Source of the DNA: a virus
Taxonomy: Duplodnaviria > Heunggongvirae > Uroviricota > Caudoviricetes
Reading direction: 5' to 3' (one strand)
Length of the DNA stretch: 6,776 nt
IMG/VR virus record: IMGVR_UViG_2654587674_000004
Shown here: piece after piece, positions 1 to 6,776 of the stretch
Numbering within the stretch: the stretch's first letter is position 1
Layout of the letters: each line of letters starts with the position of its first letter
Notes under the pieces: generated by a model
Told to the model about the DNA's origin: nothing
Seen by the model: only the letters and a program-made list of their open reading frames with translations
Database searches by the model: none
Translations under genes and position numbers: made by a program

Positions 1-13
1 TTGTGGAGTGGAT

Positions 14-1288
14 ATGGCAGCAGTAAAAATCTCAGGTGTGCTGAAAGATTGTGCGGGAAAACCAATACAGAACTGCACTATTCAACTGAAGGCAAAGCGT
101 AACAGCACCACGGTACTGGTGAACACGGTGGCCTCTGAAAATCCGGATGAAGCCGGGCGTTACAGCATGGATGTTGAGCATGGCCAGTACAGCGTCATCC
201 TGCTGGTTGAAGGTTTTCCGCCTTCACATGCCGGGACCATTACCGTCTATGAAGGCTCCAGACCAGGTACGCTGAATGATTTTCTCGGTGCCATGACGGA
301 AGAGGATGTCATGCCGGAGGCATTGCGTCGTTTTGAGGCAATGGTGGAAGAAGTGGCACGCAACGCCGAAGCCGCCTCTCAGAGCGCAGCGGCGGCAAAG
401 AAATCCGAAACTGCAGCGGCATCATCGAAGAACGCGGCGAAAACCTCAGAAACGAATGCAGCTAATAGTGCACAGGCGGCAGCGACCTCAAAGACTGCAT
501 CGGCAAACTCAGCGACAGCAGCCAAAAAATCAGAAACCAACGCGAAAAACAGTGAGACAGCCGCAAAGACGAGCGAAACCAACGCAAAGTCCAGCCAGAC
601 GGCAGCGAAAACCAGCGAAACGAATGCCAAAGCCAGTGAAACTGCGGCAAAAAACAGCCAGGCTGCAGCAGCTGAAAGCGAGAGCGCGGCAGCCGGTTCT
701 GCGACTTCAGCAGCTGGATCAGCAACTGCTGCGGCTAACAGCCAGAAAGCTGCGAAGACGAGTGAAACTAACGCAAAGTCCAGCCAGACGGCAGCGAAGA
801 CCAGCGAAACGAATGCCAAAGCCAGTGAAACTGCGGCGAAAAGCAGTCAGGATGCAGCGGCCCAAAGCGAGAGTGCCGCAGCCAGTTCTGCAAGCGCGGC
901 GGCTGCTTCTGCCACTGCATCAGCTAACAGTCAAAAAGCAGCAAAAACCAGTGAAACCAACGCAAAGGTGAGCGAAACAGCGGCTGCGAACTCAGCGAAA
1001 GCATCGGCAGCAAGCCAGACGGCAGCTAAAGCAAGCGAAGATGCAGCCAGAGAGTACGCAAGCCAGGCTGCGGAGCCGTATAAATATGTCTTACAGCCGC
1101 TGCCTGATGTGTGGATACCATTTAACGATTCGCTGGATATGATTACGGGCTTTTCGCCATCATATAAAAAAATTGTTATTGGTGATGATGAAATAACGAT
1201 GCCTGGCGACAAGGTTGTTAAGTTTAAACGACAGGGACGGATAATTTTGGTTTTACCTATGGAAAGTTTGTCTGCAACGATTCTCTGA
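14..1288 (+). CDS. stf: Side tail fibre protein, Stf family: N-terminal tail-attachment domain plus Ala/Ser/Thr-rich repetitive shaft. At about 425 aa it is short for this family and may be truncated or split from the next ORF.
   Basis: The N-terminus (MAAVKISGVLKDCAGKPIQNCTIQLKAKRNSTTVLVNTVASENPDEAGRYSMDVEHGQYSVILLVEGFPPSHAGTITVYEG...) matches my recollection of the conserved N-terminus of lambda Stf and the K-12 prophage Stf homologues. GGAG at 5-8 sits 5 nt upstream of ATG 14; the ORF track's GTG at 8 is the less likely start. The body is KTSETNAK-type repeats. Confidence 0.8.
   Translation: MAAVKISGVLKDCAGKPIQNCTIQLKAKRNSTTVLVNTVASENPDEAGRYSMDVEHGQYSVILLVEGFPPSHAGTITVYEGSRPGTLNDFLGAMTEEDVMPEALRRFEAMVEEVARNAEAASQSAAAAKKSETAAASSKNAAKTSETNAANSAQAAATSKTASANSATAAKKSETNAKNSETAAKTSETNAKSSQTAAKTSETNAKASETAAKNSQAAAAESESAAAGSATSAAGSATAAANSQKAAKTSETNAKSSQTAAKTSETNAKASETAAKSSQDAAAQSESAAASSASAAAASATASANSQKAAKTSETNAKVSETAAANSAKASAASQTAAKASEDAAREYASQAAEPYKYVLQPLPDVWIPFNDSLDMITGFSPSYKKIVIGDDEITMPGDKVVKFKRQGRIILVLPMESLSATIL
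571..968. repeat. Intragenic tandem duplication in the stf shaft: 189-bp (63-codon) unit, two full copies plus the start of a third, embedded in a wider low-complexity region (about 370-1060)
   Basis: The motif ag(c/t)gaaac(c/t)aacgcaaagtcc recurs at 571, 760 and 950 (period 189). The encoded 63-aa units are near-identical (KSSQTAAKTSETNAKASETAAK...ANSQKAAKTSETNA). Confidence 0.85.
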
Positions 1289-1311: not shown

Positions 1312-2217
1312 ATGGCATCAATTGCTGCAACAAAGTCAGTTGATGTCTCAGGCGATAATAAACACGTGACAACCTCATGTCGTTTTAAAACAGAACTGCA
1401 GGTAAGGTTGCGTATCCGGTTTGATAAATATGACGGTAGCGCAACAACTTTTCTTGGTGATGCGTATATTGATACACAAACGCTTGAAATTAATATGACA
1501 GGCGGTGCTGCCTCAAGGATTACAGCGAGAGTCAGAAAGGACGAAGCTACCGGATGGATTTTTGCAGAGGCAACAATTCAGGCAATTGATGGGGAGTTAA
1601 AAATAGGCTCTCAGATACAGTATTCTCCTAAGCAGAGCGGGGCAACCGTATCTGGTGACTATATTTATCTGGCCACCCCACAAGTAGAAGATGGGCCTTG
1701 TGTATCATCTTTTATTATATCAGGAGCGACGGCGGCGACCCGCGCAAGCGATATAGTTACAGTTCCAATTAAGAATAATCTTTATAATCTTCCTTTTACG
1801 GTTCTTTGTGAGGTACATAAGAACTGGTATAAAACGCCAAATGCAGCGCCACGTGTTTTTGATACCGGCGGTCATCAAACCGGAGCGGCTATTATTCTTG
1901 GCTTCGGTCGTTCAACAGATTACGACGGATTTCCTTATTGCGATATTGGAGGAGCTAACAGACGGGTAAACGAAAACGCATCGCTTGAAAAAATGGTTAT
2001 GGGGATGCGTGTAAAGTCAGAGCAGTCTACGTGCTCAGTAAGTAACGGGCATATATCCAGCGAAACAAAAACCACATGGTCCTGTATTCAGAACACCGCA
2101 ATTATCCGTATTGGAGGCCAGACTACAGCCGGGTTACGTCATTTATTTGGTCATGTCAGGAATTTCAGAATATGGCACAAGGCATTGACTGATGCTCAGG
2201 TGGGGGAGTCAATCTAA
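1312..2217 (+). CDS. Tail-fibre distal / receptor-binding protein with a C-terminal concanavalin-A-like (LamG-type) jelly-roll motif; possibly the distal part of a split tail fibre
   Basis: The C-terminal segment ...GLRHLFGHVRNFRIWHKALTDAQV fits the characteristic closing strand of LamG/ConA-like lectin domains (F-x-G-x-h-x-x-h-R-I-[YW]-x-[KR]-A-L-[ST]). Its reading frame is open from 1228, overlapping the 3' end of stf. Composition is beta-rich and Gly/Thr/Ser-rich. Confidence 0.6.
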   Translation: MASIAATKSVDVSGDNKHVTTSCRFKTELQVRLRIRFDKYDGSATTFLGDAYIDTQTLEINMTGGAASRITARVRKDEATGWIFAEATIQAIDGELKIGSQIQYSPKQSGATVSGDYIYLATPQVEDGPCVSSFIISGATAATRASDIVTVPIKNNLYNLPFTVLCEVHKNWYKTPNAAPRVFDTGGHQTGAAIILGFGRSTDYDGFPYCDIGGANRRVNENASLEKMVMGMRVKSEQSTCSVSNGHISSETKTTWSCIQNTAIIRIGGQTTAGLRHLFGHVRNFRIWHKALTDAQVGESI

Positions 2218-2498
2218 TGAAAGATTTAACACTCAAATTTGCCGACAGGGCCGACTTTTCGGCCTTTATGGAGAGTATTGGCTATTATGATGACGAGTCG
2301 ATGCAGGATGATATTCTTATTGACGTGATAGGTAACGTGTACAAAGAAACCGGAGAACTGACTGAAGATGGCGAACCGGTATGTGTTAAGGAAGACGGAT
2401 ATTTTGTAAACGTGCGCATCATTAATGATTCGCAAATATCGTCATTATTCGATGAATACGTGGTTGCTGTTGAGCATCAACTTCGTGGCTGGATGTGA
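2217..2498 (+). CDS. Small acidic hypothetical protein (93 aa), translationally coupled to the upstream gene; function unknown (possibly a fibre-associated chaperone or adaptor)
   Basis: The stop/start overlap TAATG at 2215-2219 couples it to the upstream ORF. The protein is strongly acidic (many D/E) with no predicted transmembrane segment. I do not recognise the family. Confidence 0.5.
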   Translation: MKDLTLKFADRADFSAFMESIGYYDDESMQDDILIDVIGNVYKETGELTEDGEPVCVKEDGYFVNVRIINDSQISSLFDEYVVAVEHQLRGWM

Positions 2499-2507
2499 GG
2501 AAGAAAA

Positions 2508-3548
2508 ATGGCTACATCGACAGTAATTCCTGATGACATCAAAACGCTAAAATCCGACGTTAGCAAATTAAAAAACGATCAAGGAAGCTACGCAACAAAA
2601 TTATATGTAGACAGCAAAGATGAAATCGTTGGTGACTGGTCTGCTTCATGGTATCAGCAGGTATTGCCAACTAGCGGAGCTATATTTGGGAGAAAACTCC
2701 GCTCAACTCACAGGACGGCAGGTGTTGAGGATGCGTATTGCGAACTATACCTCAAAAAATGGATAGACAGTCCAGGTAACGCAATGGCGCGCCTTAACCT
2801 GAACGATAACGGGACAAACATTTGCTGGGACTTTACCAACCTTTATGGCGGTACGATGATTTTTCCCGGTGACAGCGGATACCTCAAAATGGGTAACTGC
2901 CTTATGTCATACAGCAAGCGTGGAAGTAACGCGCTTATTAAATTTGATTACACCGACACATTACAGATCAAATATGCCAATCATGGGTCAACCATGACAT
3001 TAAACACACAGGGAACCGCTTATGCTGGTGTTACTGCTCAATTGTGGGGCAACTCCAGCCGTCCTGTTGTTTATGAAGTCGGTGTTGATGGTGGCGCTTA
3101 TATGTTCTATGCGCAGAAAAATACCGATAACACCTATATGTTAAGCGTTAATGGTGCATGTCATGCCACCGCATTTAACCAGCATTCCGACCGGGATCTG
3201 AAAGACAACATTCAGGTGATCGATAATGCAACCGACCGCATCCGTAAAATGAACGGCTATACATACACGCTTAAAGAAAACGGTATGCCCTATGCTGGTG
3301 TCATTGCACAGGAAGCTCTGGAAGCAATCCCAGAAGTTGTAGGTTCCGCAATGAAATATCAGGACGGTGCAAGCGGATCGGAAGGTGAAGAAGGTGAACG
3401 TTATTACACAGTAGATTATTCTGGTGTTACTGGCTTGCTTGTTCAGGTAGCCAGAGAGTCAGACGACAGAATAACAGCACTGGAAGAAGAAAATGCAGAA
3501 TTAAAACAAAGATTATCTGCAATTGAGGCGACGCTTGCGTCTAAATAA
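2508..3548 (+). CDS. Tail fibre / tailspike-like protein with a C-terminal intramolecular chaperone auto-proteolytic domain (peptidase S74 / endosialidase-chaperone type)
   Basis: The C-terminal 120 aa (...FNQH-SDRDLKDNIQVIDNATDRIRKMNGYTYTLKENGMPYAGVIAQEALEAIPEVVGS...YYTVDYSGVTGLLVQVARESDDRITALEEENAELKQRLSAIEATLASK) match the conserved S-D-x-x-x-K-x-N-I...G(V/I)IAQE...PE(V/A)V...VDY...coiled-coil pattern of the self-cleaving chaperone domain of phage K1F endosialidase and T5 L-shaped fibre. The Shine-Dalgarno GAGGAAG lies 7 nt upstream of ATG 2508. Confidence 0.75.
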   Translation: MATSTVIPDDIKTLKSDVSKLKNDQGSYATKLYVDSKDEIVGDWSASWYQQVLPTSGAIFGRKLRSTHRTAGVEDAYCELYLKKWIDSPGNAMARLNLNDNGTNICWDFTNLYGGTMIFPGDSGYLKMGNCLMSYSKRGSNALIKFDYTDTLQIKYANHGSTMTLNTQGTAYAGVTAQLWGNSSRPVVYEVGVDGGAYMFYAQKNTDNTYMLSVNGACHATAFNQHSDRDLKDNIQVIDNATDRIRKMNGYTYTLKENGMPYAGVIAQEALEAIPEVVGSAMKYQDGASGSEGEEGERYYTVDYSGVTGLLVQVARESDDRITALEEENAELKQRLSAIEATLASK

Positions 3549-3552
3549 TATT

Positions 3553-3577
3553 AAGGGGCCGAGCGCCCCGTTTTATT
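3553..3577 (+). terminator. Rho-independent terminator after the tail-fibre gene block
   Basis: GGGGC (3555-3559) pairs with GCCCC (3565-3569) around a 5-nt loop, followed by the T-tract GTTTTATT (3570-3577), immediately after the TAA stop at 3546-3548. Confidence 0.7.
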
Positions 3578-3590
3578 GGGTAGGATGAAA

Positions 3591-3884
3591 ATGGATATAA
3601 CACCTTTCCTTCATGCACTTTGTGCTGTGGCTGCGCAGGTACTGGTTGGTCTTTTTACCGGAAACTGGGCTTACGGGGCGATAGCCGGTTGTACGTTCTT
3701 CATTGCTCGTGAACATACCCAGGCAGAATATCGCTGGATTGAAATGTTCGGGCATGGCAAGCGTATGAATATGCCGTGGTGGGGTGGTTTTGATCCGCGC
3801 GTGTGGGATGTGGCAAGCCTGATGGATTTTTCTGTGCCGGTGGTGGCTTGTCTGCTGGTCTGGCTGTTGGTTAATCGTGGGTGA
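3591..3884 (+). CDS. Small integral membrane protein (about 97 aa, 2-3 predicted TM helices), phage moron-like; function unknown
   Basis: Hydrophobic stretches ITPFLHALCAVAAQVLVGLFTGNWAYGAIAGCTFFIA and LMDFSVPVVACLLVWLLV. AGGA at 3582-3585 sits 5 nt upstream of ATG 3591, which I prefer over the track's TTG at 3576 because that lies inside the terminator T-tract. Confidence 0.5.
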   Translation: MDITPFLHALCAVAAQVLVGLFTGNWAYGAIAGCTFFIAREHTQAEYRWIEMFGHGKRMNMPWWGGFDPRVWDVASLMDFSVPVVACLLVWLLVNRG

Positions 3885-4037
3885 AAAAGGGAGTTGTAAA
3901 CGCAACACAGGAAGAGGTGCCGCTTCAGGTTGCTGGGAATAAGCGCCGGGGTCTGTTAAATCATGCCAATACGCTAATCGAGCCAGATATTGAGTAGCCT
4001 GCAGTCCGTCATGGCGTAATCGTTTTGTGATATGCTG

Positions 4038-4106
4038 CACGCCGTATGCAAGGAGCATGATTGCGCTCGACTGGCGAGCGCTCGATAGTGCTACTATTGA
4101 ATGATT
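4038..4106. repeat. Copy A of an imperfect direct repeat of about 70 nt (partner at 5509-5575)
   Basis: Two conserved blocks shared with copy B in the same orientation: cacgccgtatgcaagga (4038-4054; 15 of 17 identical to 5509-5525) and cgatagtgctactattgaatgatt (4083-4106; 22 of 24 identical to 5552-5575), separated by a divergent 28-nt spacer. Weaker similarity may extend about 30 nt further upstream. Confidence 0.7.
4063..4081. repeat. Perfect 7-bp inverted repeat inside the spacer of repeat copy A (hairpin or palindromic binding site)
   Basis: GCGCTCG (4063-4069), 5-nt loop ACTGG, CGAGCGC (4075-4081). No flanking T-tract on either strand, so it is not a typical terminator. Confidence 0.5.
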
Positions 4107-4241
4107 GCTAGTCTAGGCGGATTGTACTTAAGTAATATGACGGTTCAAGGCGTTTAATCTGAAACCAGCCACATATTAGCCTTTTCAAACATTTCCTGAA
4201 CACTCAGGCTTACCTGCTCTTTCTCGTGCTTGCTGGCATTT

Positions 4242-4275
4242 GTGTTGAGCGCCGGTGAATACTCTTACTCAACAC
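4242..4275. repeat. 8-bp inverted repeat with an 18-nt spacer (possible operator-like dyad)
   Basis: GTGTTGAG (4242-4249) and CTCAACAC (4268-4275) are exact reverse complements. Confidence 0.4.
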
Positions 4276-4347
4276 TCCCAGAATTATATCTGTTGCATCA
4301 GGCAGACCATCAAAATTCTTTTGTCATAAACGAGTTCCACGAATAAT

Positions 4348-4366
4348 GTGCCCTATGGTAGGGCAC
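4348..4366 (-). terminator. Candidate weak terminator hairpin downstream of the minus-strand orphan gene
   Basis: Perfect 8-bp stem GTGCCCTA / TAGGGCAC with a 3-nt loop, 64 nt past the stop at 4430-4432. On the minus strand it is followed by ATTATTCG, a weak U-tract, so it could instead be a protein-binding palindrome. Confidence 0.35.
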
Positions 4367-4379
4367 TATTGATATGAAT

Positions 4380-5330
4380 GAGTAGCTAAAAAGATTTTTC
4401 GTTATGTATTAATGTATCTGTCACTTATTTTATAGTAAAGATGATATGCCAGCAAGAAATGGAGTAAATACTGTAATGTGTGCAGATACATTATTAATAA
4501 AGTCCTTATATGCTTCTTTAAAACAGCCGCTTTGGTGACTGGCTGCCAGTGCCTGTACATTATCTATAAGGTGTGATTCTGTCGCGCCATCAAAGTTTTT
4601 CGATTTTATTGCCTCAATCATTTCATTAAATATTGTGGGCTCATTATAATTTGTCGTAGTAGTTGCCGTAGCACCTGAAGAATGTATATTGATACTAGAA
4701 CCGGAAATTCCACTGACATGAATATTAGCTTCTTGTTTCATAAGAGGTAAACCATTCTCCATCTTGTATAGGTCACTATCTTGTAGCATCTGCAATGTGA
4801 TACGTACTGCTGCTAATAGTTGTTCTTGCTTTTTGAATAAGGAACACATCTGTTCTACAGACCAAAGCTGAACTGCATTTTCTTCGCATGTTTTTTTAGC
4901 TATATTTGGCACTTCCGAATCATAATTACCATAAACCCAAGTGTCCTTGAATCTTTCGATAATAGCTGTCAACGTTGGAAATTTACTGAAATCACTATTA
5001 ATGGATAGTAACTCATCAGACATATAAAGTGCCATATCTCTGCCTTCCGCATATACTGCTTCCACTTTATTCCGTGTTGCAAATGGTATTCTTGAAATAA
5101 AACGAAAATCCTCTTCATTTTTTAAATGGACCCAGTCTTTATCAAAACGGCTAAATTCGTACCCTATCGATAACAGTCTACTTATATATTGGGCTACTGA
5201 TTCCAAATCTTTTCTTATGTCCAAAGTATTACTCCTGCTTGTCAACCGAGTCTGTCGGTTTTCTTACAAATGGCTTGTCTTTAAAGTTCTGATTAAAAAG
5301 ACGCTAACCAATACTTAATAATACATGAAA
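4380..5330. other. AT-rich island of foreign-looking composition containing the orphan gene
   Basis: Hand counts on 60-nt lines inside 4441-5040 give about 30% GC, against about 50% in the tail-fibre and sit genes on either side. Confidence 0.7.
4430..5224 (-). CDS. Orphan hypothetical protein (264-271 aa) in an AT-rich island: helical N-terminal region, Ser/Thr/Gly-rich linker and hydrophobic C-terminal tail. Candidate accessory cargo (defence/exclusion, toxin or effector); function unassigned.
   Basis: Longest ORF is 4430-5245 with a TTG start. I prefer the in-frame TTG at 5222-5224 because AGGAG (minus strand, plus coordinates 5232-5236) lies 7 nt upstream of it; there is no in-frame ATG until about residue 71. 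The C-terminus AHITVFTPFLAGISSLL is hydrophobic and the linker reads HVSGISGSSINIHSSGATATTTT. I recognise no family. Confidence 0.6.
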   Translation of the reverse strand: MDIRKDLESVAQYISRLLSIGYEFSRFDKDWVHLKNEEDFRFISRIPFATRNKVEAVYAEGRDMALYMSDELLSINSDFSKFPTLTAIIERFKDTWVYGNYDSEVPNIAKKTCEENAVQLWSVEQMCSLFKKQEQLLAAVRITLQMLQDSDLYKMENGLPLMKQEANIHVSGISGSSINIHSSGATATTTTNYNEPTIFNEMIEAIKSKNFDGATESHLIDNVQALAASHQSGCFKEAYKDFINNVSAHITVFTPFLAGISSLL

Positions 5331-5696: not shown

Positions 5697-6554
5697 CTAA
5701 TTGGGGGATAACAGATCCTGTCTATGAGCGTTTCCCTTTGTGCGTGCGTTGAAACTGATAACGGTAAACGTCATGATGAACACAACCGCGAATAAGACGA
5801 CAATCGTCGGAGCTGGTGCGCTGTCGATAAAAAAGGACAGCCAAACACCAGTCATTGAGACTATTACCGATATGCCAGTCGCCAGTAGGAGTGCAATATG
5901 AAAGCGTTGTGTCAGGAGTACCGCAATGGCGCCAGGCGCAATGAGCAGAGAAATGGAGAGAATGATACCTACTGCTTTCAGCGTCGCCACAATGGTCAGG
6001 GAAACCATGCACAGCAGCCCATAATGCAGCCATCGCGTATGCAAACCGCTTACCTGCGCCTGTTGATAATCAAAGCTGAACAGCAAAAAATCCCGCCATT
6101 TTACGCTAATAACAAGTGTAACCAGCCCGGCAATAATCATCGTCTGGATTATATCGCCGATGGTTACCCCGAGCATGTCGCCGAAAAGAATATGGTCAAG
6201 ATGTATGTCTGGTTTGACTGCAATATACAAGATCAGACCTGCGGCAAACATGCCAGAAAAAACAATCCCCATCACTGTATCTTGCTTGATTCGGCTGTTG
6301 TCTTTCAGGTATCCCGTCGCCACCGCGCAGAATACTCCGGCGATAAATGCCCCTGTAGCCAGAGGTAACCCCAGAATCCAGGCAAGCACGATGCCAGGAA
6401 AAACCGCATGACTCATCGCGTCACCCATCAGTGCCCAACCTTTCAGGACCAGAAAGACCGACAGCAGCGCACAGGGTATGGAAACTACCAGTGAAATCAG
6501 CAGTGCGTGACTCATAAAGGTGAACTGCAGTGGCTCCAGTAATAATGCCATCAT
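5697..6554 (-). CDS. sitD: ABC-3 family Mn/Fe transporter permease, SitD/MntD-like
   Basis: 285-aa polytopic membrane protein with the ABC-3 permease pattern (...DAMSHAVFPG..., ...ILFGDMLGVTIGDI...). Its start overlaps the stop of a second upstream permease in an ATGA arrangement (6551-6554), as in sitC-sitD type operons. The SitD versus MntD/other ABC-3 assignment is from context and recall. Confidence 0.8.
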   Translation of the reverse strand: MMALLLEPLQFTFMSHALLISLVVSIPCALLSVFLVLKGWALMGDAMSHAVFPGIVLAWILGLPLATGAFIAGVFCAVATGYLKDNSRIKQDTVMGIVFSGMFAAGLILYIAVKPDIHLDHILFGDMLGVTIGDIIQTMIIAGLVTLVISVKWRDFLLFSFDYQQAQVSGLHTRWLHYGLLCMVSLTIVATLKAVGIILSISLLIAPGAIAVLLTQRFHIALLLATGISVIVSMTGVWLSFFIDSAPAPTIVVLFAVVFIMTFTVISFNARTKGNAHRQDLLSPN

Positions 6555-6776
6555 GAGCGATCCTCCAGCGCTTTATGCGCACGCCGACGATTTGCCAAAA
6601 GCCCATGGGTGGGCGCAAATACAAATGCTAAAAGAAACAGCAGTGTCTGCGCCACCACGATGATTCCACCTGTCGCGCCGTCCAGAAAGTAACTGACCCA
6701 CGCGCCGAGGAAACTGGTTACACTGCCAATAGTTACAGCAATTATGAGCAGGCGGGGAAAACGATCGGTTAACAAC
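6551..6776 (-). CDS. sitC: ABC-3 family Mn/Fe transporter permease, SitC/MntC-like; 3' portion only, the gene continues beyond the window end
   Basis: The C-terminal 74 aa are open to the window edge (...SYFLDGATGGIIVVAQTLLFLLAFVFAPTHGLLANRRRAHKALEDRS), typical of an ABC-3 permease C-terminus. The TGA stop overlaps the sitD ATG. Confidence 0.7.
   Translation of the reverse strand, partial: LLTDRFPRLLIIAVTIGSVTSFLGAWVSYFLDGATGGIIVVAQTLLFLLAFVFAPTHGLLANRRRAHKALEDRS

Follow-up and report, generated by a model that had tools for sequence, protein, structure and literature searches.

The prophage locus described here raises the question of what a small membrane protein is doing directly behind a set of tail-fibre genes, and how it comes to be expressed in that place. 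The window, meaning the whole stretch of 6,776 nucleotides (nt) taken from IMG/VR record IMGVR_UViG_2654587674_000004 (Caudoviricetes), is the right arm of a lambda-like Escherichia coli prophage, and the gene in question is an open reading frame (ORF) at 3591..3884 on the plus strand encoding a protein of 97 amino acids (aa). The gene is annotated everywhere as hypothetical and is an uncharacterised phage accessory membrane protein near tail-fibre genes. The evidence set out below identifies it as a genuine, intact gene under purifying selection whose family spans four proteobacterial classes, and the explanation that we favour, tentatively, is that its product is a host-directed, non-structural inner-membrane accessory factor that alters the envelope or the entry competence of the cell.

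The gene, its family and its predicted topology

The gene and its parts are as follows.

3582..3585, plus strand: Shine-Dalgarno sequence AGGA, 5 nt before ATG 3591, read from the sequence
3591..3884, plus strand: coding sequence of the 97-aa membrane protein, phrog_1443 family, RefSeq WP_001405873.1, stop codon included, dN/dS 0.12-0.25
3600..3659, plus strand: helix 1, residues 4-23, with conserved H8 and Q16 (AlphaFold, alignment)
3666..3749, plus strand: helix 2, residues 26-53, a hydrophobic half (26-39) followed by a polar half bearing the family signature (AlphaFold)
3705..3740, plus strand: family signature A39-R-E-H-T-Q-A-E-Y-R-W-I50, in which R40, E41, Q44, A45 and E46 are invariant or nearly so (50 members)
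3750..3809, plus strand: loop, residues 54-73 (GHGKRMNMPWWGGFDPRVWD), rich in Lys and Arg, predicted to be cytoplasmic, with W72 invariant family-wide (alignments)
3810..3878, plus strand: helix 3, residues 74-96, hydrophobic, with D79, P83 and C87 (AlphaFold, alignments)

The 97-aa protein noticed at this position in a preliminary description, made from the letters alone, is the product of a real gene, as pairwise dN/dS against its homologues lies between 0.12 and 0.25, 570 homologous 90% clusters were found and the ORF on the opposite strand is interrupted in the homologues. That antisense ORF (161 aa, 3573..4058) was rejected as a gene because of these stops. Two start codons are available in the frame that ends at 3882-3884, TTG 3576 for a product of 102 aa and ATG 3591 for one of 97 aa. 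The true start is assigned to ATG 3591, because RefSeq uses it, the AGGA lies 5 nt upstream of it, and homologues in unrelated upstream contexts all start with the same ATGGATATAAC; the annotators of phage 21 also marked a ribosome-binding site at the equivalent place.

The protein belongs to phrog_1443 and matches that profile along its whole length (E 7.2e-59), its residues 1-96 aligning with positions 1-96 of the 97 in the profile. When 1.84 billion representative proteins were searched with a profile, 438 clusters at 50% identity came back, and the 150 matches listed were all stand-alone proteins of 63-146 aa, with no domain fusion among them; an apparent 1123-aa fusion in a Sphingobium locus (L043) was rejected, as it lies in a different reading frame. 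Members span the alpha-, beta-, gamma- and deltaproteobacteria and their phages, with enterobacterial hosts in Escherichia, Salmonella, Leclercia, Citrobacter and Pantoea, and further hosts in Aeromonas, Halomonas, Comamonas, Acidovorax, the sphingomonads, Devosia, Chelativorans and Desulfovibrio. The gene is present in 1912 of 5426 complete E. coli genomes (35%), with a median of 2 copies and a maximum of 7, and these up to 7 copies within a genome are near-identical.

Searches of the protein and 50 divergent members against Pfam, NCBIfam, PADLOC and PDB sequences gave no consistent match; single members gave chance-level matches to the PhoR N-terminus, VirB3/TraL, Phage_holin_8 and CbiM. In PADLOC-DB v2 the protein itself matched 0 defence families, and the 50 members gave single chance-level matches only. 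The homology search that the preliminary description called for thus leads to phrog_1443, and no homologue is a known structural protein. The same family includes gene CPT_21_24 of phage 21 (OL657228, "putative membrane protein"), which occupies the same genomic place, does not differ in kind from the gene studied here and was given no function by its annotators, just as WP_001405873.1 is a "hypothetical protein" in RefSeq. A literature search for phrog_1443, Ybl63 and the accessions found nothing on the gene, and it is not discussed in the phage 21 announcement or in a paper on gut coliphages (PMC6969025).

The preliminary description had also pointed to a conserved-looking loop rich in Trp and Gly, HGKRMNMPWWGGFDPRVWDV, which corresponds to residues 55-74. 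Among close relatives, which share 26 invariant positions, this holds well, with M61, P62, W64, G65, G66, F67, D68 and W72 invariant in the loop. Across the whole family, judged on the same 50 divergent members, W72 is the only invariant residue of the loop, and the Trp/Gly loop is conserved only in the branch that contains the enterobacteria, Aeromonas and Comamonas. The family core consists instead of H8, the residues R40, E41, Q44, A45 and E46 of the motif (A/G)RExxQAEYRWI, W72 and P83, with the motif, H8, W72 and P83 conserved best, and D79, R58 and M61-P62 are common.

The AlphaFold model is a confident three-helix bundle (H4-23, H26-53 and H74-96; pLDDT 92.4), in agreement with the two or three hydrophobic helices noticed earlier. 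Residues 4-39 form a hydrophobic hairpin, after which helix 2 continues as a polar, amphipathic segment. Mean Lys plus Arg is 5.3 in the region 40-73 compared with 0.5-0.9 on the opposite side, and under the positive-inside rule this bias predicts a topology with the N-terminus and the loop inside and the C-terminus outside. In such an arrangement H8, R40/E41, Q44, E46, the loop and D79 would be gathered at the cytoplasmic face of the membrane.

Position behind the tail fibres and expression

The features that bear on expression lie between the preceding fibre gene and the ORF, which is the next and final plus-strand cistron after it.

2508..3548, plus strand: 346-aa tail fibre, phrog_4563, with a C-terminal Peptidase_S74 intramolecular chaperone
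3523..3551, plus strand: weak sigma-70-like match, TTGAGG-17 nt-TAATAT, 8/12, overlapping the fibre stop codon; found by eye and below the scan threshold
3555..3577, plus strand: terminator-like hairpin GGGGC-CGAGC-GCCCC (3555-3569) with U-tract, 3' of the 346-aa fibre gene

The gene had been described as sitting about 14 nt behind a strong terminator, which left its expression signal unclear. The gap is as described, since 13 nt separate the end of the U-tract (3577) from the ATG, and a hairpin is present, with 5 G-C pairs, a 5-nt loop and then GTTTTATT. The word "strong" does not hold for a stem of this size: the local fold of -15.1 kcal/mol has z = -1.0 against shuffled sequences, and the 10 terminator-like sites in the window compare with 6.3 +/- 2.3 expected. 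The hairpin is therefore a plausible but modest terminator. The same hairpin (3555..3569) scores as a terminator on the minus strand too, with a poor T-tract there (TTAATATTAT), and it might keep antisense transcripts arriving from the convergent side, which carries the sit genes, a 271-aa gene and a DinI-like gene, out of the tail genes.

Comparison of the junction across the 80 closest IMG/VR prophage loci places the hairpin in a wider context. In 58 of these loci the junction is tight, with the ORF 10-25 nt past the stop codon of the preceding plus-strand tail gene, a strong AAGGAGG Shine-Dalgarno sequence and no hairpin, and phage 21 and an Stx2k phage likewise have tight junctions of 10-25 nt with the AAGGAGG and without a hairpin. 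The arrangement of the window occurs in the other 22, together with the cassette of the 346-aa fibre with its S74 chaperone. Taken together, the tight junctions show that the gene is normally the final cistron of the tail-fibre operon, with the hairpin belonging to the 346-aa fibre cassette. In a Comamonas prophage the gene overlaps its neighbours after gpJ, and in phage 611R6 it has been transferred together with the hairpin and 165 nt of the 3' end of the S74 fibre gene. The 38-aa CDS annotated there as a "tail fiber protein" (locus L073, 3845..3958) is a mere 3' remnant of a lambda-type S74 fibre gene.

No candidate reached the threshold of a promoter scan in the stretch from the fibre gene to the ORF, and the terminator scan of the window found no plus-strand terminator downstream of the ORF. 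The sub-threshold match at 3523..3551 is also kept in phage 611R6; speculatively, a transcript initiated about 7 nt past it would have its first nucleotide within the hairpin's 5' arm. Gally alone has an AT-rich spacer of 190 nt with a promoter-like site of 9/12. Late transcription in lambdoid phages is Q-antiterminated and reads through such hairpins, so that late co-transcription with the tail genes is the default expectation for the ORF. Between the operon-coupled relatives and this expected read-through, the puzzle of a gene placed so close behind a terminator is largely resolved.

Accessory status and candidate functions

Searches by tblastn and hidden Markov models showed that the gene is absent from lambda, from the tail region of HK97 and from P22, and it is present in phage 21, HannyBb, Gally and phiv142-3, a distribution that covers lambda-like, P22-like and epsilon15-like phages. 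Its GC content of 0.52 differs from that of the fibre gene (0.44-0.46) and of the downstream gene (0.36). In P22-like phages it occupies the slot between tailspike and int, with the order tailspike-ORF-int in Gally, tailspike-oafA-ORF-int in 611R6 and tailspike-gtrCBA-att in P22 itself; in the epsilon15-like phage phiv142-3 the tail fibre and the lysis genes flank it, and in a P1-like plasmid it is found among small ea-type genes. The suggestion that this is a moron position is thus borne out in one respect and not in another: variable presence, a GC shift and the gtrABC/oafA slot mark the gene as accessory, and the missing promoter and terminator of its own, together with operon coupling in 58 of the 80 loci, speak against an independent unit.

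The virulent phages carry only frameshifted or truncated remnants, which stand beside intact fibre or tailspike genes: a 51-aa C-terminal fragment in coliphage 6947 and its relatives (locus L077, 3465..3620) and a 41-aa N-terminal fragment in Kuttervirus KFSST3 (locus L079, 3480..3605). The gene is dispensable for plaque-forming phages and decays in virulent ones. The Aeromonas jumbo phage ACP1 has an intact 87-aa copy between two fibre-like genes. As a separate observation, the decayed fragments resemble footprints of fibre-cassette exchange between temperate and virulent phages. In the window, the ORF is intact despite a broken 790-aa fibre gene nearby.

Solitary copies also occur on bacterial chromosomes, in five Aeromonas species in the order pirin-ORF-RIO1 kinase and in sphingomonads as recN-ligA-ORF or as ORF-cfa synthase. 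The chromosomal neighbours that were compared are varied (ligA, pirin, RIO1 kinase, cfa synthase, an MFS transporter, cytidine deaminase, cyclophilin and AMP nucleosidase), with no conserved partner gene among them. An apparent ftsA-ORF-ftsZ arrangement was rejected, as the upstream gene encodes an MFS transporter. Patchy presence, the shared slot, the GC shift, decay in virulent phages, retention beside a broken fibre gene and the solitary copies together indicate a cell-autonomous function that would benefit the cell, and not a role in the virion or its assembly.

Members from E. coli through Comamonas to the sphingomonads keep an invariant signature, and the fibres and spikes encoded upstream of them are unrelated, which points to a conserved host ligand or partner, or to catalysis, at the inner membrane. 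A blocker of one specific receptor, or a protein that recognises particular phage proteins, would not be expected to be so extremely conserved over different hosts and fibre types. In the explanation that we tentatively favour, the gene would share the late transcript of the tail genes, with Q-antiterminated transcription passing the modest hairpin in the window, possibly with additional low-level expression in lysogens. The product would insert with its N-terminus inside and its C-terminus outside, so that H8, R40-E41, Q44, E46, D79 and the K/R-rich Trp/Gly loop would form a polar cluster on the cytoplasmic side. This cluster would bind or modify an inner-membrane component conserved across the Proteobacteria, the candidates being a lipid or lipid carrier, an ion and a conserved membrane protein. 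A particular phage receptor would not be masked, and the outcome would be a generic change in envelope or entry, of the conversion or exclusion type, favouring the cell that carries the phage.

Several systems of lysogenic conversion and host interaction are comparable in part. The products of P22 gtrABC, the OafA/Oac acetylases and the lambda-type morons lom, bor and sitABCD are membrane-located accessory products, as is that of the ORF, and gtrABC and OafA share its slot between tailspike or fibre and att-int. Unlike the ORF, gtrABC has its own promoter and the opposite direction of transcription; in addition, the ORF product has no similarity to GtrA (hhalign probability 0.1%; no Pfam match) and no recognisable enzyme fold. 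The receptor-blocking lipoproteins Cor and Llp are small, and their genes adjoin tail-fibre or receptor-binding genes. They differ from the ORF product in that it is polytopic, unlike a lipoprotein of the periplasm or outer membrane, and not tied to one receptor type. A reading of the ORF product as a lipoprotein was rejected, as its N-terminus, MDITPFLHALC, has no basic n-region, Leu stands at -1 to Cys11, and Cys11 varies in the family.

A number of points weigh against the inner-membrane accessory factor. No homology or experiment links the family to any activity, and fold searches return generic helical bundles only, with no fold relative. The GenBank note for phage 21 records two transmembrane domains by TMHMM, with both termini inside, and a SignalP signal peptide; with that topology the conserved loop would be periplasmic. 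The possible expression in lysogens has no promoter at threshold to account for it, and decay in virulent phages was seen in two copies, a small sample. Finally, placement in a late operon and the intact copy in ACP1 would also fit a role in the lytic cycle.

Among the alternatives, classical superinfection exclusion of the HK97 gp15, P22 SieA or T4 Imm type fares best, and we still regard it as unlikely. It holds that the protein binds incoming tape-measure or ejection proteins, or the inner-membrane conduit, and so stops DNA entry. The known proteins are, like the ORF product, small inner-membrane proteins from accessory genes of tailed phages, and the slot beside receptor-binding genes is also familiar, with P22 sieA near gene 9 and cor and llp similarly placed; the decay in virulent phages and the retention of copies in degraded prophages, that of the window included, would be expected as well. 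They are, however, narrow and phage-specific, and gp15 forms its own annotated moron unit, whereas the ORF is usually operon-coupled and belongs to a family with chromosomal members whose motif is invariant across four proteobacterial classes and unrelated tail types. No sequence or profile relation connects the ORF product to gp15, SieA, SieB, Pfam or PADLOC families (hhalign probability 0.5% for HK97 gp15, 0.3% for P22 SieA and 0.1% for SieB), and neither a fixed chromosomal gene in Aeromonas and sphingomonads nor up to 7 near-identical copies per E. coli genome suits an exclusion protein. Lambda RexB, CcmC, CcmF and the other named families compared also gave hhalign probabilities of at most 1.6%.

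Two further possibilities are less probable than this. One is a lysis-related or permeabilising protein, either a holin- or antiholin-like timer or an abortive-infection pore, which we consider improbable. Class I holins are likewise about 100 aa long with three hydrophobic helices, and the polar residues H8, Q16 and D79 lie within helices. In phiv142-3 the ORF is just upstream of genes for a membrane protein, holin, endolysin and Rz, an endolysin-like gene comes after the ORF in an Acidovorax prophage, and one of the 50 members touches Pfam Phage_holin_8 (E 0.0036). Class I holins, however, have the N-terminus out, the C-terminus in and a charged C-terminal tail, whereas the ORF product is predicted to lie the other way round with an uncharged tail of about 3 residues. 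The ORF also stands outside the lysis cassette in lambda-like phages, after the tail fibres, and these carriers have their own S-R-Rz cassette elsewhere. Comparison with lambda S and P22 gp13 by hhalign gave probabilities below 1%, and solitary chromosomal copies under purifying selection would be unexpected for a lethal pore. Helix number agrees with membership of class I, with orientation, tail, location and profile comparison against it.

The other is an ion- or metal-handling protein, carried as metabolic cargo like sitABCD, in which H8, E41, Q44, E46 and D79 would form a cation site at the membrane face; its chances appear similarly slim. The conserved residues are indeed His, Glu, Gln and Asp, R-E-x-x-Q-x-E recalls the REXXE motif of iron permeases, the gene is housekeeping-like on some chromosomes, and single members gave weak matches to CbiM and Cad transporters. 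The motif is nevertheless not REXXE, H42 is not conserved family-wide, no transporter family rises above noise, and linkage to sitABCD is incidental, because the gene occurs in phages without sit. A resemblance to the WWD heme-handling proteins (CcmC/CcmF, PF01578), which carry a Trp-rich WGxxWxWD motif with His ligands on either side, seen by eye between GKRMNMPWWGGFDPRVW and GKPMWGTWWVWDARLT of CcmC, was also rejected: hhalign gave 1% and 0.2%, PF01578 was matched by 1 of 50 members at E 0.14, and the WW pair is not conserved family-wide.

A helper in tail-fibre maturation or assembly, acting with the upstream fibre genes, is very improbable, for despite linkage to fibre or tailspike genes in siphoviruses, podoviruses, a myovirus remnant and a jumbo phage, translational closeness to the preceding tail gene and shared travel with a 93-aa phrog_1361/18574 gene, the product is an integral membrane protein found with unrelated fibre types, its gene decays beside intact fibre genes in virulent phages, it is absent from lambda, HK97 and P22, and its solitary chromosomal copies have no fibre genes nearby.

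The surrounding prophage and the reach of the family

The remaining features of the window are listed here.

8..1288 and 1312..2217, plus strand: side-tail-fibre or "tail protein" gene, in two ORFs
2217..2498, plus strand: 93-aa gene, phrog_1361 (weakly phrog_18574)
about 4154..4340, minus strand: DinI-like gene, annotated as frameshifted (pseudogene) in the identical RefSeq region
4430..5245, minus strand: 271-aa gene, GC about 36%
5697..6554 and 6551..6775, minus strand: sitD and sitC

Positions 3400-4400 are identical to many ST131-type chromosomes, for example that of strain DA33137; gpJ and lom lie upstream, beyond the window, and an Rfam search of the window found no RNA family. The two ORFs at 8..1288 and 1312..2217 represent a 790-aa side-tail-fibre gene that is intact in phage HannyBb and broken here, the first corresponding to residues 2-405 and the second to residues 490-790, with about 84 codons lost and the frame shifted. 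The prophage is probably side-fibre-defective; laboratory lambda is side-fibre-defective too. Tandem repeats of 42 nt and 189 nt at 514..967 (plus strand) encode an Ala/Ser/Thr/Lys-rich "KTSETNAK" stalk in the N-terminal part of the fibre; they probably vary in length, and the deletion that disrupted the gene is likely to have arisen in them.

The 93-aa phrog_1361 gene accompanies the 97-aa ORF in E. coli and Comamonas prophages. It lies immediately upstream of the ORF in phage 21 (locus L164, 5710..5988, 92 aa) and in 28 of the 80 prophages, and at the same position in a Comamonas prophage there is a 188-aa protein with the same phrog_18574 N-terminus (locus L025, 5432..5998).

On the other side of the ORF, the opposite strand carries the DinI-like pseudogene, the 271-aa gene and sitD/sitC. 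The Stx2k phage (locus L162) has an intact DinI-like gene at the equivalent place. The 271-aa gene has no Pfam, PHROG or NCBIfam match; it matches only the PADLOC candidate PDC-M14B, and that weakly (E 0.0017), and it could be an unrecognised defence or accessory gene. The sit genes are part of a phage-borne sitABCD cargo operon and not of the host chromosome: in strain DA33137 the host genes uspF-ompN-nifJ begin only past sitA, and the genes of phage 21 run from the side tail fibre through the 92-aa gene and the ORF to sitDCBA. The sitABCD operon has been reported as a moron in gut lambda-like phages (PMC6969025).

The notable points of phrog_1443 are its frequency in E. coli, its wide phylogenetic reach and its sharply conserved polar motif. 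It is among the commonest unexplained genes of E. coli prophages, and it is also found on phage-plasmids and in the classical laboratory phage 21, which together with lambda-like gut isolates offers a ready genetic system. A bolder proposal, to which we assign a rather low likelihood, is that the family constitutes a class of miniature inner-membrane effectors of about 97 aa and three helices, with the pattern H...R-E-x-x-Q-A-E...W...D/P, that bring about a receptor-independent envelope conversion or entry block and have been domesticated in Aeromonas and the sphingomonads. Such an effector might be an enzyme of very small size that acts on lipids or carriers, or else a module for binding ligands or ions, and temperate phages of four proteobacterial classes may encode it in the final position of the tail-fibre operon. 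The invariance of the polar motif over these four classes implies a specific, conserved molecular interaction. If that interaction is enzymatic or ion-related, these proteins would be among the smallest membrane effectors known, and if it changes the envelope or the entry of phages, there would be consequences for predicting host range and for phage therapy directed at clinical E. coli, ST131-type strains among them.

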